Shown here: positions 15,983 through 44,178 of the stretch, in pieces
How the letters are laid out: each line of letters opens with the position of its first letter
How positions within the stretch are numbered: position 1 is the stretch's first letter
Assembly: GCF_041886205.1 (NCBI RefSeq)
Contig: NZ_CP169029.1
Source: Escherichia coli
GTDB taxonomy: Bacteria > Pseudomonadota > Gammaproteobacteria > Enterobacterales > Enterobacteriaceae
Strand: one strand, 5' to 3'
Length of the DNA: 64,000 nucleotides
Program-made: the position numbers and the translations under genes
Notes under the pieces: generated by a model
Seen by the model: only the letters and a program-made list of their open reading frames with translations
The model's database searches: none
Told to the model about the DNA's origin: nothing

Positions 15983-16519
15983 TTAACTGCGCGGGTAATG
16001 GATGAGGGAATGAAAATGTACGATTTGCTCCCTACCATTACGATAGACATGCGTGACGTCTGCAGCAAATCGAGCGCCTTCCCCACAATTAAGGCTCTGC
16101 CATTCACCATCAACGCACAGATCAAGTTGTCCATCAATGACGACGACATGTTCGATTACCCCCTTCTCATGGGGCGTCGATTCGCTTATTGCACCGGGTG
16201 CCATCTGAATCGAGAAGTGTTCAAAGCAGAGTTGTGGATCATAAGGAAACAGCGAAGTGATCACCATCGCCTGCTGTTGTGGATCATAAACTGAAGGCGT
16301 TGCGGACTGCGGCGGAGAAATAAATGTCGAAAATGGCACGTTCAACCCGGTGGCAATTTTCCATAATGTCGCGACCGTCGGGCTGGACTCATTACGCTCA
16401 ATCTGCCCTAACATCGCTTTAGAAACGCCCGTCGCTTCTGCCAATCGCGAAAGACTCCAGCCGCGCTGCTGGCGTAGTTGTTTAAGTGTGGTGGATAAAA
16501 AGCGAGCGAGATTTTCCAT
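15983..16519 (-). CDS. ydcN: XRE-family HTH regulator with cupin domain YdcN, 178 aa
   Basis: ORF 15983..16519; N-terminal HTH. Confidence 0.85.
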   Translation of the reverse strand: MENLARFLSTTLKQLRQQRGWSLSRLAEATGVSKAMLGQIERNESSPTVATLWKIATGLNVPFSTFISPPQSATPSVYDPQQQAMVITSLFPYDPQLCFEHFSIQMAPGAISESTPHEKGVIEHVVVIDGQLDLCVDGEWQSLNCGEGARFAADVTHVYRNGREQIVHFHSLIHYPRS

Positions 16520-16610
16520 GCGACTCCTCCGGCAAAACGGAAGTTTATCACTTGTGCGTTATAACGGACAAATGCTACGGTACCTGTACGCTATAACGCA
16601 CGAGGTGACT

Positions 16611-17783
16611 ATGCGTCTGTTTTCTGTTCCTCCACCCACGCTACTGGCGGGGTTTCTGGCGGTATTAATTGGCTACGCCAGTTCAGCGGCAATAATCTGG
16701 CAAGCAGCGATTGTCGCCGGAGCCACCACTGCGCAAATCTCTGGCTGGATGACGGCGCTGGGGCTGGCAATGGGCGTCAGTACGCTGACTCTGACATTAT
16801 GGTATCGCGTACCTGTTCTCACCGCATGGTCAACGCCTGGCGCGGCTTTGTTGGTCACCGGATTGCAGGGACTAACACTTAACGAAGCCATCGGCGTTTT
16901 TATTGTCACCAACGCGTTAATAGTCCTCTGCGGCATAACGGGACTCTTTGCTCGTCTGATGCGCATTATTCCGCACTCGCTTGCGGCGGCAATGCTTGCC
17001 GGGATTTTATTACGCTTTGGTTTACAGGCGTTTGCCAGTCTGGATGGTCAATTTACGTTGTGTGGCAGTATGTTGCTGGTATGGCTGGCAACCAAGGCCG
17101 TTGCGCCGCGCTATGCGGTAATTGCCGCGATGATTATTGGGATCGTGATCGTCATCGCGCAAGGTGACGTTGTCACAAATGATGTTGTCTTTAAACCCGT
17201 TCTCCCCACTTATATTACCCCTGATTTTTCGTTTGCTCACAGCCTGAGCGTTGCACTCCCCCTTTTTCTGGTGACGATGGCATCGCAAAACGCACCGGGT
17301 ATCGCAGCAATGAAAGCAGCCGGATATTCGGCTCCTGTTTCGCCATTAATTGTATTTACTGGATTGCTGGCACTGGTTTTTTCCCCTTTCGGCGTTTATT
17401 CCGTCGGTATTGCGGCAATCACCGCGGCTATTTGCCAAAGCCCGGAAGCGCATCCGGATAAAGATCAACGTTGGCTGGCAGCTGCCGTTGCAGGCATTTT
17501 TTATTTGATCGCAGGTCTGTTTGGTAGTGCTATTACCGGGATGATGGCTGCCCTGCCCGTAAGTTGGATCCAGATGTTGGCAGGTCTGGCGCTGTTAAGT
17601 ACCATTAGCGGCAGTTTGTATCAGGCGCTGCATAATGAGCGTGAGCGAGACGCGGCGGTGGTGGCATTTCTGGTAACGGCAAGTGGATTGACGCTGGTCG
17701 GGATTGGTTCTGCGTTCTGGGGATTAATTGCCGGAGGCGTTTGTTACGTGGTGTTGAATTTAATCGCTGACAGAAACCGATGA
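16611..17783 (+). CDS. ydcO: BenE-family inner-membrane transporter YdcO
   Basis: ORF 16350..17783; first ATG at 16611 (MRLFSVPPPTLLAGF), multi-pass membrane protein. Confidence 0.8.
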   Translation: MRLFSVPPPTLLAGFLAVLIGYASSAAIIWQAAIVAGATTAQISGWMTALGLAMGVSTLTLTLWYRVPVLTAWSTPGAALLVTGLQGLTLNEAIGVFIVTNALIVLCGITGLFARLMRIIPHSLAAAMLAGILLRFGLQAFASLDGQFTLCGSMLLVWLATKAVAPRYAVIAAMIIGIVIVIAQGDVVTNDVVFKPVLPTYITPDFSFAHSLSVALPLFLVTMASQNAPGIAAMKAAGYSAPVSPLIVFTGLLALVFSPFGVYSVGIAAITAAICQSPEAHPDKDQRWLAAAVAGIFYLIAGLFGSAITGMMAALPVSWIQMLAGLALLSTISGSLYQALHNERERDAAVVAFLVTASGLTLVGIGSAFWGLIAGGVCYVVLNLIADRNR

Positions 17784-26833: not shown

Positions 26834-28474
26834 TCACACCGTAGCGAAACTAACTGGTTCACCCGCTCCGCGAGGTTCTGCCGACACAGAATGTTTGTGC
26901 AGACGGAATACATCCACCGCCTCAGTTAATCGTGCCGCCTGTTCTTCAAGGGACACCGCCGCCGCTGAGGCCTCTTCTACCAGAGAAGCATTCTGTTGCG
27001 TCACCTTATCCATTTCAGAAATCGCCTGGCTAACCTGCGTTATGCCTCTACTTTGTTCATCCGAGGCGGCGGCGATTTCCTGCATGATATGTGTGACACT
27101 CGCGACGGCATCAACAATAGTGCTCATGGTTTTCCCTGCCGTTGCCACCTCATCCGACCCCAGGTCAATTAACCTGACTGATTCACTGATCAAGCCTTCA
27201 ATCTCTTTCGCCGCCTGAGCGCTGCGACTTGCGAGTGTCCGTACTTCGCTGGCGACAACGGCAAATCCACGCCCTTGCTCACCCGCTCGCGCGGCTTCAA
27301 CGGCAGCATTCAGTGCCAGAATATTCGTCTGGAAAGCAATACTGTTGATGACGGCGGTGATCTCAGAAATTTTCTTCGAACTCGTGGAGATAGCGCCCAT
27401 CGTTTTTACTACACCGGAAACCGTCTGCCCGCCATCGCTGGCTTTAATAGAAGCCTCTTGCGCCAGTTTACTGGCATAATGCGCGTTATCCGCATTCTGT
27501 TTCACCGTCGCAGTGAGTTGCTCCATGCTGGCGGCAGTTTGTTCAATTGCCGCCGCTTGTTCTTCGGTGCGAGATGAAAGATCCGCATTGCCAGCGGAAA
27601 TTTCGCTGGTGCCACGATAAATCTCTTCCGCGCCCTGTCGAACAGTCCCTACTGTCATCCCCAGTGAATGCTGCATTTGCTGTAAATGACGACTTAAGCG
27701 ACCGATTTCATTACGACCCGCCGGTTCATCATTCATCGTCAGATCGCCACTGGCGATTTTTTCAATCCGTTGTGCGGCATGTTGCAGTGGACGAATGACG
27801 ATCCGACGTAGCACCATAAATGTTATCAGCGTCATGACCAGGGCAAGCACAAACGCGCCAATCATAAACATCCCACCCAGGCTGGTGCGCTGATGGGCCA
27901 GTTCCGCCAGTTGGTTGGCTCTGGTGCTACGTATCTTAACGGCTTTGTTCAAAATATCGGTATAAGCATTATCCAGCGTTCGGATCTGCTCACTTTCATG
28001 ATTGATAATCGCTTCAAACATGCCATTTTTGGCATATTTCATCATAGGTTGCATACCCGTGATATAAGCCTGGAAGCGTTGATTTAATTCAGTGTCGAGG
28101 GCTTCATCAGCAGGTGTTTTCACCGGCCGATTCTGATAAGCACGATAACCTTGCTGCGACTGTTTAATCTCCGATTCGGCTTGCGCAATATTTCGCTTCA
28201 TTGCTTCCATTTCCGCAATACGACTCGCAGCCCCGGCCTGAATCATATTGATCCGGGCTGAACGCAAAAAATCTGAACTGTTCGCTAACCCGGTCCGAAT
28301 CTCAATCTCCGCAGTAACATCACGCTGATCGCGATCGGCCTGCCAGAGGAAATAGCCAGCCAGGGCTGAACTTAATGCGAATAGAACTAAGATACCGCCT
28401 AGAATGCAGGCAAATAACGGAACCAATCTGATGTGATGCAAAAAACCTAATCGCTGTGAGGGAGTTGTATTCAT
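26834..28474 (-). CDS. trg: Methyl-accepting chemotaxis protein III (ribose/galactose sensor) Trg, 546 aa
   Basis: ORF 26834..28474; two TM segments, HAMP and conserved MCP signalling domain. Confidence 0.9.
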
Positions 28475-28540: not shown

Positions 28541-28794
28541 CGACTAAAAGCCTCTTTGCGTCACATTTTTACAACAATTATTGCAGAGAAGATTAATGCT
28601 ATTGGAATGAAGAGAGTAACGAATGGCTAAACCGAATGACGAAAAATTCTGGAAAACAGCACGCAATTTCGTGAAGTGATTATTTCGTCCCTAAGGAAAC
28701 CTCATAGGATGCCTGCGGGTGCCTGAGACTTTCTGTTTTCAGGCTAACCGGGAATCAGAAAGACGAAGGCCCAGACCGATATTTCTATCAACCG

Positions 28795-29012
<218 letters not shown>

Positions 29013-29083
29013 GGGCAAGCGCGGGGATTTTCCCCGTGCATCTGACTAGCGGATTCATTTTCTCATGGCACCCCTTTTACACT

Positions 29084-29257
29084 TCAGTTAGTGCATGTTT
29101 TTTTCGATGCACTAATAGAACCATCATTACAGACAAATTTGCCGCCTGCCGTACAGTGTGAGATCCCCCCTTTCGAACCAGAACAGGGTTAGCGCCCGGC
29201 ATCGGCATAAAAGGAAACAAGCGTTCCCATAAACAAAATAAGTGCCAGTTTTTTCAT
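29084..29257 (-). pseudogene. ydcA: ydcA interrupted by ochre stop at codon 23 (58-codon frame otherwise intact)
   Basis: Minus-strand translation [63 protein letters not shown]; stop at 29189..29191. Confidence 0.7.
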
Positions 29258-29427
29258 ATAATCTCCATGGTTTATCGAATCTTATGTTCGATTTGAACGT
29301 TATACGCTGGTTTATTTTGATACCGTTGATGAGATCAAAGATCGGGTGAATTGATTAAAGATAAGCCAGATGAACGTATGGACAAGGATTATGGTTTTAT
29401 TTGTCATACAAATAAATATAATAGGCG

Positions 29428-29491
29428 CTTCCGATGTAGACCCGTATTCTTCGCCTGTACCACGGGTCGGTTTTAGTACAGGCGTTTTCTT
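29428..29491 (+). ncRNA. rydC: Hfq-dependent sRNA RydC, ~64 nt
   Basis: CTTCCGATGTAGACCCGTATTCTTCGCCTGTACCACGGGTCGGTTTTAGTACAGGCGTTTTCTT matches recalled RydC sequence; TATAAT -10 at 29417..29422; terminator hairpin plus U-run. Confidence 0.8.
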
Positions 29492-29501
29492 GAAATATCC
29501 T

Positions 29502-30032
29502 TCAGGAACGTTTACGCGGCATCATGCGTAGAAGTGTGTTGTCCTTCCAGAAATAGTGGTGTGCCAGTGCAGCCGCAGCGTGCAACCCGATGACAAAATA
29601 TCCCAGATTCGCCAGCGTTTCATGCCACGACTTTAAGCTATCTACCCGTTCGAAATTGGCCTCTGAAGCGTAAGGCATCGTCAAACCAAACGCAAACCAC
29701 GGGTTACCCCGGTTATACATCATCACCAAACCAATCACTGGCAGCGCAATAAACAGGAGATAAATCACCAAATGTCCCAAATGCGCCAGTCCCGTCATCA
29801 TCGGTTTTGGCTTAGGTATAATCGGCGGGGTTGGGTATTTCAGCCTTAACAAAAGACGAACGACCATCAGCACGAGAATTGAGATGCCGCAGGAAACATG
29901 AATCATGTTGATGAGCGGCCGATCGCTACGTGGGAAGAAACCACGAAACTCCATTGCGCAATACGCTGCGATAACCAGTAAAAAGACCAGCCAGTGAATG
30001 CTGATTTGTAACCTTGAGTATTTATTTTCCAT
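29502..30032 (-). CDS. cybB: Cytochrome b561 CybB, 176 aa
   Basis: ORF 29502..30068; ATG at 30032 (MENKYSRLQISIHWLVFLL); four TM helices with conserved His. Confidence 0.9.
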   Translation of the reverse strand: MENKYSRLQISIHWLVFLLVIAAYCAMEFRGFFPRSDRPLINMIHVSCGISILVLMVVRLLLRLKYPTPPIIPKPKPMMTGLAHLGHLVIYLLFIALPVIGLVMMYNRGNPWFAFGLTMPYASEANFERVDSLKSWHETLANLGYFVIGLHAAAALAHHYFWKDNTLLRMMPRKRS

Positions 30033-30220: not shown

Positions 30221-31222
30221 ATGAGTAAAGTTGGTATTAACGGTTTTGGTCGTATCGGTCGACTGGTGTTGCGTCGATTACTTGAAGTCAAAAGCAACAT
30301 AGACGTTGTCGCTATTAATGATCTCACTTCCCCAAAAATTCTCGCCTACCTGCTGAAACATGATTCAAACTACGGACCATTCCCCTGGAGCGTTGATTTT
30401 ACGGAAGATTCACTTATCGTTGATGGGAAAAGTATCGCGGTTTACGCCGAAAAAGAGGCTAAAAATATTCCGTGGAAAGCGAAAGGTGCAGAAATCATTG
30501 TCGAATGTACTGGCTTTTATACCTCCGCCGATAAATCGCAGGCGCATCTTGATGCTGGTGCGAAGAAGGTGTTGATTTCCGCTCCTGCCGGTGAAATGAA
30601 AACCATCGTTTATAACGTTAATGACGACACTCTGGATGGCAACGACACCATTGTTTCCGTGGCGTCATGCACCACTAACTGCCTTGCGCCGATGGCCAAA
30701 GCCTTGCATGACAGTTTCGGGATAGAAGTCGGCACGATGACGACCATTCATGCCTATACTGGCACCCAGTCACTGGTGGATGGCCCACGTGGTAAAGATT
30801 TACGTGCTTCACGCGCAGCGGCAGAAAATATCATTCCCCACACTACGGGGGCGGCAAAAGCCATTGGTCTGGTGATCCCGGAACTGAGCGGCAAACTGAA
30901 AGGTCATGCGCAACGCGTGCCGGTGAAAACAGGTTCGGTCACTGAACTGGTATCGATTCTCGGAAAAAAAGTGACTGCCGAAGAGGTGAATAACGCACTT
31001 AAACAAGCAACCACCAATAACGAGTCATTTGGTTATACCGATGAAGAAATAGTCTCTTCCGATATCATTGGCAGCCATTTCGGTTCGGTGTTTGATGCCA
31101 CGCAAACGGAAATTACCGCCGTGGGGGATTTACAACTGGTGAAAACGGTCGCCTGGTACGATAACGAATATGGCTTCGTCACGCAGCTTATTCGCACCCT
31201 CGAAAAATTCGCTAAACTCTGA
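30221..31222 (+). CDS. gapC: Glyceraldehyde-3-phosphate dehydrogenase GapC, intact 333 aa
   Basis: Uninterrupted ORF 30221..31222; NAD-binding GxGxxG (NGFGRIGR) and catalytic SCTTNC motif. Confidence 0.9.
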
Positions 31223-38730: not shown

Positions 38731-41701
<2,971 letters not shown>

Positions 41702-41871: not shown

Positions 41872-44178
41872 TCAATACAACTCATCAAGTTTTCTCATCG
41901 CTTGTTCCCGTATTGCGCGCGTCTTACCGTTAAGCGCCAGCTGGCGGACTAAATCCAGTTCAGGGTTAACAAGCTCTAACGCCAGCAAAGGATCACGTTT
42001 CAGCCTCGCCTTTAATACATCAACTGGAAAACGGGGATTATTCATCGCCACAATCCACCACTCGGGATCAATTTCTGCCGCCAGTACTGCAGGCGGTGTG
42101 TGGCGGTTGTTAAGTGCGCCGAACTTGAAAAATGTGAGATTGCTTTTCGCCAGTGTACTCCACCATATACGATCCGGTTGTTTTGCCAGTACATCCAGTT
42201 GTGCTAACGCATCGGGGTCGAGTGCATAATAAACACGTAATGCTTCATCAACCTGCGCACGGGAGCTGTTTTCCTGCCTCAGAAAAAACTTCGCCCAAAT
42301 ATCATTGCGTGGCGTATTTTGCTGTAATTCCTTGAGGACAACAGCGGGTAAATTATCCCAACTAACTAATGCACTCTCTAAAAAGTCCCAGTCTTCCAAA
42401 CGTATCAGGGCGGTGGCATTTAATAGCATCTGGTCATCAACTTCACCGTGGCTGATAAGCTCAGACAAAATCATATCAGCGCTGGTTTCATATGCAGCTG
42501 AATCTGCTTTCGGATTATTTTTCCGATGTGATAAAGCACGTTGCCAAATTTTTTGTTTCATCGCCGTACTCAGATACTGATTTTTCGCCAGATTACTCCA
42601 CCCCTCAGGATCGTTGAAACGTGTCAATAACCGTTGTAAAGCAGCGTCAGAGTGAATTACCTGCATATCCCGACAGCAAAAGTAGGCAGGGGATTTTTTC
42701 TCCATCCTTTTAACAAAATTAAACTGTAAGTTATCTGGCAACGCTAAAAATAACGCACCTATTAGATCATCGTCATTCTCGAATTTTTGGTATAAATATA
42801 CTGCTATTTTGTCACTCTCTTGTGGCGTCATCCGCAACAATTGACCATGGTGTTTCATCTCTGCCAGCTTTAACGCTAAGCTTGTGACAACATCGTTTGA
42901 TGAATCGTTCGCCAACTGCATTGCCTGATTGTAGGTGAGTTGTCCTCCAGCACCGACCTGACGAATAGAGGAATCATCACTGCGGATATAGCCATCAATA
43001 ATGGATTCGGGCAATAACCACGCATCTTTATAAAGCTCCTGAATGATCATATCCCAATCTCTTTTCGCCAGAGTCATGACGATATCCAGAGGGAGATTTT
43101 CACGTAGCGCAAGATTCAACGGACCGACACCATCAGGTAGATGACTCATTCGCGTCATTATTTCGACAGAGAGCGGTTCACGGTCGAGCAACCCCAGAAC
43201 AACAGGCTGGTAACCCAATTGCTGATCGGTCAACTCCAGAATCTCATTGTCCGGCATATATCTCGCCATACTTTCAATCGTTTGTTCATCATTGCTATTA
43301 ATAAGTTGTTTGCGTAGGTTAGCTGAAATTCCTTTAAGCCTTGGGAGAGTTCGCATTATGGCAAGATCAAATGTCGCAATATCTCGTCCTTCAAATGCAG
43401 CAACGTTGCCTTCATCCAGCATTTGCAATTCCTGCACTAACTCAGGAGAAGGCTTAGGGCGAAACAGCGCTTCTTTTTTCATCTGATTACAGACATTCCC
43501 TGCCATGCGAATATTGCTTCGCTTAAAAATTTCTTTCAGAGCATCTTCATCATTTATTCGACCCTAATAATATGCATCAGGATTTATTATCATCAGCGCT
43601 TTTTTGACATTTTCAGTGTCATTTTTGTCACTCGCACGGACCATGAATTCACTATTTGTCGAAGACGCAACAACAGGTGCAATTATGTCATTGATAAATA
43701 TCCCACGCGCATTAATACTCCCCTTAATCGTAGACGGATTATCGTAATATGAGTCGATAAATACCAGTCCACTTGCATTTATCGAACCGGTAATTAACAG
43801 TGGCGAATCTGTAACTATATTTGTTGCCGTCACGTTACCGAGAATAACCCATGGATTAGAAAGAGAGAAAGTGGAAATATTACCTTTGACTGTCAAATTG
43901 CCAAGAACAATCAATTTTTGATTACTCTCTATATTACCTTCTACCACTAAATCGCCACGATGCACTTTCCAGTCCGATGCAGATAAACCGAAGGGGACAA
44001 GATTCACGCTACTGTTGATAGCTTGTTCAACTTGTTGTTTATCTTCAGCGGTAGCTGCAGATAAAAATGGTTCAATATCAACTGCATTTGCAACACATCG
44101 AAGTTCCGCCTGTACTGGAAGACTCAGCATAAACAGGGGAAGTAAACCTATCCAGCTGCAAATCCTGGGCTTAAACAT
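41872..44178 (-). pseudogene. ydbD: ydbD (DUF2773) split by in-frame amber codon into 204/206-aa and 544-aa ORFs
   Basis: ORFs 43564..44184 and 41872..43506 are in the same frame, separated by TAG at 43564..43566 and 19 open codons; total matches a 768-codon frame from ATG 44178. Confidence 0.65.

Follow-up and report, generated by a model that had tools for sequence, protein, structure and literature searches.

The stretch of E. coli DNA analysed here, referred to as the window, comprises 64,000 nucleotides. The locus of interest was identified from its neighbours, which occur in the order trg - sokB/hokB - yncP - ydcA - rydC - cybB - gapC (Table 1). With rydC and cybB on one side and hokB on the other, ydcA has the synteny described for Escherichia (PMC11340327), and K-12 shows the same order (cybB - rydC - ydcA - yncP - hokB) with a ydcA of the same length. 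The rydC sequence of the window matches the Rfam consensus stem exactly. At position 13 of RydC, which is in the stem (29440 in the window), five of the six carrier genomes presented below have G for A, turning an A-U pair into G-U; the base is A in the window, in the carrier wlxctx60, in K-12 and in the outgroups. A scan for sigma-70 promoters over 28800..29600 gave no match. At the end of the locus, gapC is whole in the window, and in K-12 it is a pseudogene with a frameshift and stops.

Table 1. Features of the ydcA region and other disrupted loci in the window
Feature	Coordinates	Strand	Remarks
trg (Trg)	26834..28474	-	
sokB (sok family match)	28717..28868	+	Rfam
hokB (HokB)	28863..29012	+	
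yncP	28990..29058	-	Intact small ORF of 22 codons, 25 nt downstream of ydcA
ydcA pseudogene	29084..29257	-	57 codons + stop, interrupted at codon 23; matches K-12 ydcA except for one base
Remnant of ydcA, presumably untranslated	29084..29188	-	34 codons of the four-Cys mature domain + native TGA
Premature ochre stop TAA, codon 23	29189..29191	-	Mutated base 29191: A on + strand, T on gene strand
Residual 22-codon frame MKKLALILFMGTLVSFYADAGR	29192..29257	-	Predicted Sec-type signal peptide (residues 1-20) + Gly-Arg
ydcA Shine-Dalgarno	29262..29266	-	GGAGA, versus GGAGG in K-12; variant base 29262
rydC (sRNA RydC)	29428..29491	+	Divergent from ydcA; intact; Rfam RF00505, 92.5 bits
cybB (cytochrome b561 CybB)	29502..30032	-	Annotated CDS
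gapC (GapC)	30221..31222	+	Intact, 333 aa
ynbC/ynbB-like fused remnants	~40037..41701	-	Two remnants, as annotated in relatives
ydbD pseudogene	41872..44178	-	
Internal stop of ydbD, codon 205	43564..43566	-	

Translation of the minus strand over the ydcA region yields 22 codons, a TAA, 34 open codons and the native TGA. This retranslation reproduced exactly the frame layout given in the preliminary description, which had been made from the sequence alone and had named the gene as ydcA. The assignment is borne out by synteny, by the family score given below and by comparison with K-12 MG1655, where ydcA (b1419) has 174 nt and encodes a 57-residue product (WP_000731833.1) annotated as 'periplasmic protein', a length that the preliminary description had given correctly. 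The window and K-12 genes are identical at 173 of 174 bases (99.4%). The sole difference within the gene is at codon 23, where K-12 has AAA (Lys), as had been predicted, and the window has TAA; outside the coding sequence, the two also differ in the Shine-Dalgarno. The same AAA is found in PT62, B-1109 and four other comparators.

The window region is colinear with the full-length homologue and contains no frameshift, as is characteristic of an 'internal stop' pseudogene. A chance open reading frame is not a plausible origin of the pattern, since the sequence shares 99.4% identity with an annotated gene over its 174 nt, and that gene is found in 5,411 of the 5,426 complete genomes of E. coli (at least 80% coverage). 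When K23 was restored, the conceptual translation scored 147.3 bits against the YdcA equivalog NF007462 (NCBIfam; cutoff 118). A Pfam-A scan with a local copy that does not include the PF27300 model gave no family match. A functional member of the YdcA family has an intact frame, which the TAA at codon 23 interrupts; judged from its sequence, the ydcA of the window is a pseudogene of this family and does not have the status of a functional member.

YdcA is a protein of 57 residues of unknown function, with a signal sequence and a predicted periplasmic location (PMC11340327). Precomputed PF27300 assignments place homologues in Escherichia, Citrobacter, Yersinia, Hafnia, Apirhabdus, Acinetobacter and Actinobacillus. 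Alignments of 18 and 42 members show residues 1-20 to be variable and hydrophobic, with A-x-A at their end. From G21 onwards, near-invariant positions are C25, G27, K29, G30, G31, S33, H34, C35, F41, V42, C43, N44, D45, G46, S49, S51, K52, K53 and C55, including the motifs GGISHC and FVCNDGSIS; such conservation between genera shows that this part is constrained. Position 23 is occupied by Lys or Gln in the homologues. Both the signal peptide and the four-cysteine domain (C25, C35, C43, C55) are encoded in frame in the window, as in the family. The AlphaFold2 model of YdcA has a mean pLDDT of 75, with values of 77-89 over the mature part, and shows a small β-hairpin domain.

By the -3/-1 rule, signal peptidase is predicted to cleave after Ala20 (ADA|GR). 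The stop would then be the third codon of the mature peptide, in agreement with its earlier placement at the end of the signal peptide, and carriers of the mutation could make only MKK...ADAGR.

The distribution of the mutated base was examined in 5,426 complete E. coli genomes with 30-mer probes specific for T at position 29191. As megablast needs an exact word of 28 bases, matches are limited to genomes holding the T. A probe centred on the site found four genomes and a probe anchored upstream found six. The two missed by the centred probe, LHM10-1 and CP52E, have a P24S substitution immediately 3′ of the stop; the six found with the anchored probe could likewise be an underestimate, as a carrier with SNPs on both sides of the site would still be missed. 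A 61-mer around the site was identical in two genomes and had one to three mismatches in 5,405, but these identity bands under-count the carriers, since a second nearby SNP places a carrier in the wild-type band. With 99.9% of the complete genomes retaining a sense codon, the allele is rare.

The six carriers are XJ5.2 (bovine, China; ydcA locus KFQ11_RS11875) and 6EVA (human, Singapore; SE698_RS09755), with the TAA alone; wlxctx60 (Asian black bear, Japan; AC6IW3_RS09565) and VE-T9 (Vietnam, source unstated; QQK52_RS11595), with the TAA and I32S; and LHM10-1 (pig, China; E1J55_RS12075) and CP52E (human, Thailand; KKZ11_RS11990), with the TAA and P24S. Adding the window, which has the TAA alone, gives three sub-alleles. 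The whole ydcA gene of XJ5.2 and 6EVA is identical to that of the window. In all six genomes the NCBI pipeline PGAP labels ydcA as an 'internal stop' pseudogene; codon 23 is the same TAA, and the chromosomal background is that of the window. This allele is thus already on public record as a RefSeq 'internal stop' pseudogene, and it is an ordinary lineage-specific gene loss. Over 18.5 kb, the window differs from each of the six by 7-15 positions and is identical to none; it therefore adds a seventh independent assembly in which this base is seen.

Among the seven carriers, pairwise comparisons gave 1-18 SNPs over 18.5 kb of colinear sequence, versus 57-85 differences per 18.5 kb when carriers were compared with PT62 or B-1109, the genomes next closest to them. 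All carriers have the T at 29191, and neither of these two outgroups does. The six carriers and the window form one tight clade, in which the stop has been inherited clonally; the allele is present in six independent complete genomes of this single clade. LHM10-1 and CP52E ranked low in a 21-kb similarity search because a blaTEM transposon breaks ydcK. In both genomes ydcK is truncated by this transposon, which has a recombinase and blaTEM (TEM-32 in LHM10-1, TEM-1 in CP52E). Pairwise divergence in the clade reaches 0.1%. With commonly quoted E. coli clock rates, the stop allele might be aged something like centuries rather than years, a figure that recombination would inflate.

Other loci of the window region are disrupted in this lineage. 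A second nonsense pseudogene, ydbD, is annotated with an 'internal stop' in wlxctx60, VE-T9, XJ5.2 and 6EVA; B-1109 has an intact copy, and in PT62 an IS1 interrupts the gene. The event is of the same kind as that of gapC in K-12, in that a colinear core gene is broken by a lineage-specific point mutation. Unlike in these two cases, the stop in ydcA comes so early that the signal peptide alone remains. An internal stop in rimL is found only in 6EVA (16468..17007 of its compared region), and rimL is intact in the window. In the ynbC/ynbB-like segment, relatives annotate two fused remnants, a methyltransferase/hydrolase without its N-terminus and a CDP-alcohol phosphatidyltransferase without its C-terminus, which suggests an internal deletion common to the window lineage, PT62 and B-1109.

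Within the clade, only two sites vary in the 105 nt that follow the stop, 29188 (P24S) and 29163 (I32S). Both changes are nonsynonymous and none is synonymous. They are two of the clade's 36 variable sites, versus 0.2 expected (Poisson P ~0.018 in a post hoc test). P24 is more than 90% conserved in the YdcA family, and S32 occurs naturally in an intact YdcA of E. marmotae. The substitutions fit relaxed constraint on a dead gene, a reading that rests on two sites. The two genomes with I32S, wlxctx60 and VE-T9, fall in different subclades elsewhere, a distribution that points to homoplasy or recombination within the clade.

The surrounding haplotype was compared as well. Between 28838 and 30200, a tract covering the 3′ end of hokB, ydcA, rydC and cybB, 22 sites with fixed differences separating carriers from outgroups are packed into 1.4 kb, and the flanks are near-identical. 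Against six diverse comparators, eight sites seemed to be limited to the carriers, and five of these lie in a stretch of 192 bp. Local decay or hypermutation was considered for this cluster and rejected, as the spacer haplotype 29360-29382 was found in 116 genomes, including SE11, of which 110 do not have the T allele. The region around ydcA looks like a short recombination tract and is a mosaic of the usual kind produced by recombination; the T at 29191 alone is specific to the clade. A weakened Shine-Dalgarno was likewise considered as a first step of decay. The variant GGAGA is found in the six carriers and, independently, in 21EVA, a genome of unrelated background (1-3% divergent) from the same Singapore sampling as the carrier 6EVA. 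As 21EVA combines GGAGA with an intact ydcA, this proposal was rejected, and the variant is a rare polymorphism rather than demonstrable decay.

Taken together, the best explanation, with a probability of about 0.93, is an inherited single-base nonsense mutation that has produced a clade-restricted loss-of-function pseudogene, with a loss that is tolerated. One A-to-T transversion changed Lys23 (AAA) into an ochre codon (TAA) in the ancestor of the carriers, a small lineage of E. coli to which the window belongs. Translation would stop after Arg22, two residues beyond the predicted signal-peptidase site, and the only product would be a 22-residue remnant of the signal peptide, expected to be inserted and then degraded. 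The conserved periplasmic domain of 37 residues with its four cysteines would not be made, hence a loss of function. The allele, presumably tolerated, has been inherited clonally and has spread in East and South-East Asia among hosts that include cattle, pig, human and bear, and the dead part has started to gain amino-acid-changing substitutions. Most likely, the lineage has simply lost a periplasmic protein that is non-essential and associated with stress. Deletion of ydcA in E. coli W leaves growth in minimal medium normal, but the strain is severely inhibited by 300 mM 3-hydroxypropionate; according to the same study, YdcI controls ydcA, which is induced at pH 5 (PMC7642389). The normal growth of the deletion strain without 3-hydroxypropionate fits a tolerated loss.

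Single-base differences are the commonest kind of assembly error, and the true genome could have AAA at codon 23. The site lies outside any homopolymer, however, and the same T is found at the same site in six complete genomes that come from five countries and were sequenced independently; they are the closest relatives of the window. The preliminary description had named reference ydcA sequences sharing the stop as evidence against its reading. Six genomes do share it, but all are clade-mates in which the gene is annotated as a pseudogene, and about 5,400 others do not have the T. The sharing by six clade-mates rules out a sequencing error for practical purposes, leaving that explanation a negligible probability, and does not make the stop normal. 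It is scarcely more probable that functional YdcA is still made past the stop, by way of readthrough, an ochre suppressor tRNA or re-initiation, although some low-level readthrough of the UAA is conceivable. The TAA is followed by C, which as a 3′ neighbour base is not the strongest termination context, and the downstream frame is open in all carriers; at such low divergence, however, an open frame is the default expectation. Both release factors recognise UAA, and no recoding signal is known for this codon in E. coli. Programmed recoding would involve either UGA together with a SECIS element or UAG in a genome with pyl genes; a UAA at a position where homologues have Lys or Gln fits no such system. 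No ATG, GTG or TTG is found in frame in the rest of ydcA downstream of the stop, and any restart product would be devoid of a signal peptide or other export signal. The nature of the codon and the lack of an in-frame restart codon support the earlier proposal that no mature Cys-rich peptide is produced. A scan for tRNA genes found none within the 64-kb window, and is silent on suppressors elsewhere in the genome. The gain of P24S at a position more than nine-tenths conserved also argues against continued selection downstream of the stop.

A nonsense allele that persists and spreads over hosts and countries could also have been selected, for instance through the removal of YdcA or through polarity on yncP and on the transcription converging on hokB/sokB. 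The position of ydcA between rydC and the hokB/sokB locus is compatible with such effects, and other disrupted ydcA forms in public E. coli data hint at recurrent loss. On the other hand, among the complete genomes probed, the codon-23 mutation has not recurred independently outside the one clade, nearly all genomes keep the sense codon, and the presence of ydbD as a second nonsense pseudogene in the window fits ordinary drift. Selected loss is accordingly considered quite unlikely, although less so than an error or a bypass. A related and marginally less probable proposal is that the stop is non-neutral: translation and transcription would be uncoupled 105 nt before the end of ydcA, altering yncP and the transcription that converges on hokB/sokB, or the loss of the acid-associated YdcA would have helped the spread in Asia. 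The tolerated, clade-restricted loss by a single nonsense mutation is thus retained as the preferred reading.

Other broken forms of ydcA are present in public E. coli data. In 181 contigs, a frameshift in an A-run replaces the C-terminal TCTN by HALTEV (ending ...SKKHALTEV). Several further forms have unrelated C-terminal tails, which are possibly due to insertions or contig junctions. The gene has thus been lost sporadically elsewhere too.

The profile of the YdcA family gave one match among solved chains, 7muc_AN (E = 0.0011), with the profile motif C-x2-K-GGI-x-[HY]-C ... VCN[DN]G aligning to two segments of the chain. The same chain was the top Foldseek match of the AlphaFold model (33 columns, 1.8 Å, 39% identity, E = 0.54); apart from Dis2, the Foldseek search against the PDB returned nothing significant. 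Dis2 (Lpg0823), the protein of this chain, is a component of the Legionella Dot/Icm secretion system. Like YdcA, it is small, secreted and rich in disulfides, and the YdcA motif aligns to both of its lobes. Both proteins are of unknown function (PMC8486379). However, Dis2 has two lobes and YdcA one, E. coli does not have a Dot/Icm system, and the similarity is borderline. The YdcA domain weakly resembles one lobe of Dis2, and YdcA may be a single-lobe relative; this lead is weak and falls short of a result.

The stop in ydcA has little significance beyond annotation. The T allele is a handy single-base marker of the clade. The finding would mean that a lineage living in cattle, pigs, humans and a wild bear can do without YdcA in nature, strongly conserved though this small periplasmic protein is. 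The carriers would be natural knock-outs that could be compared, for instance in their tolerance of acid or 3-hydroxypropionate, with their close intact relatives PT62 and B-1109 in the search for a phenotype of YdcA.
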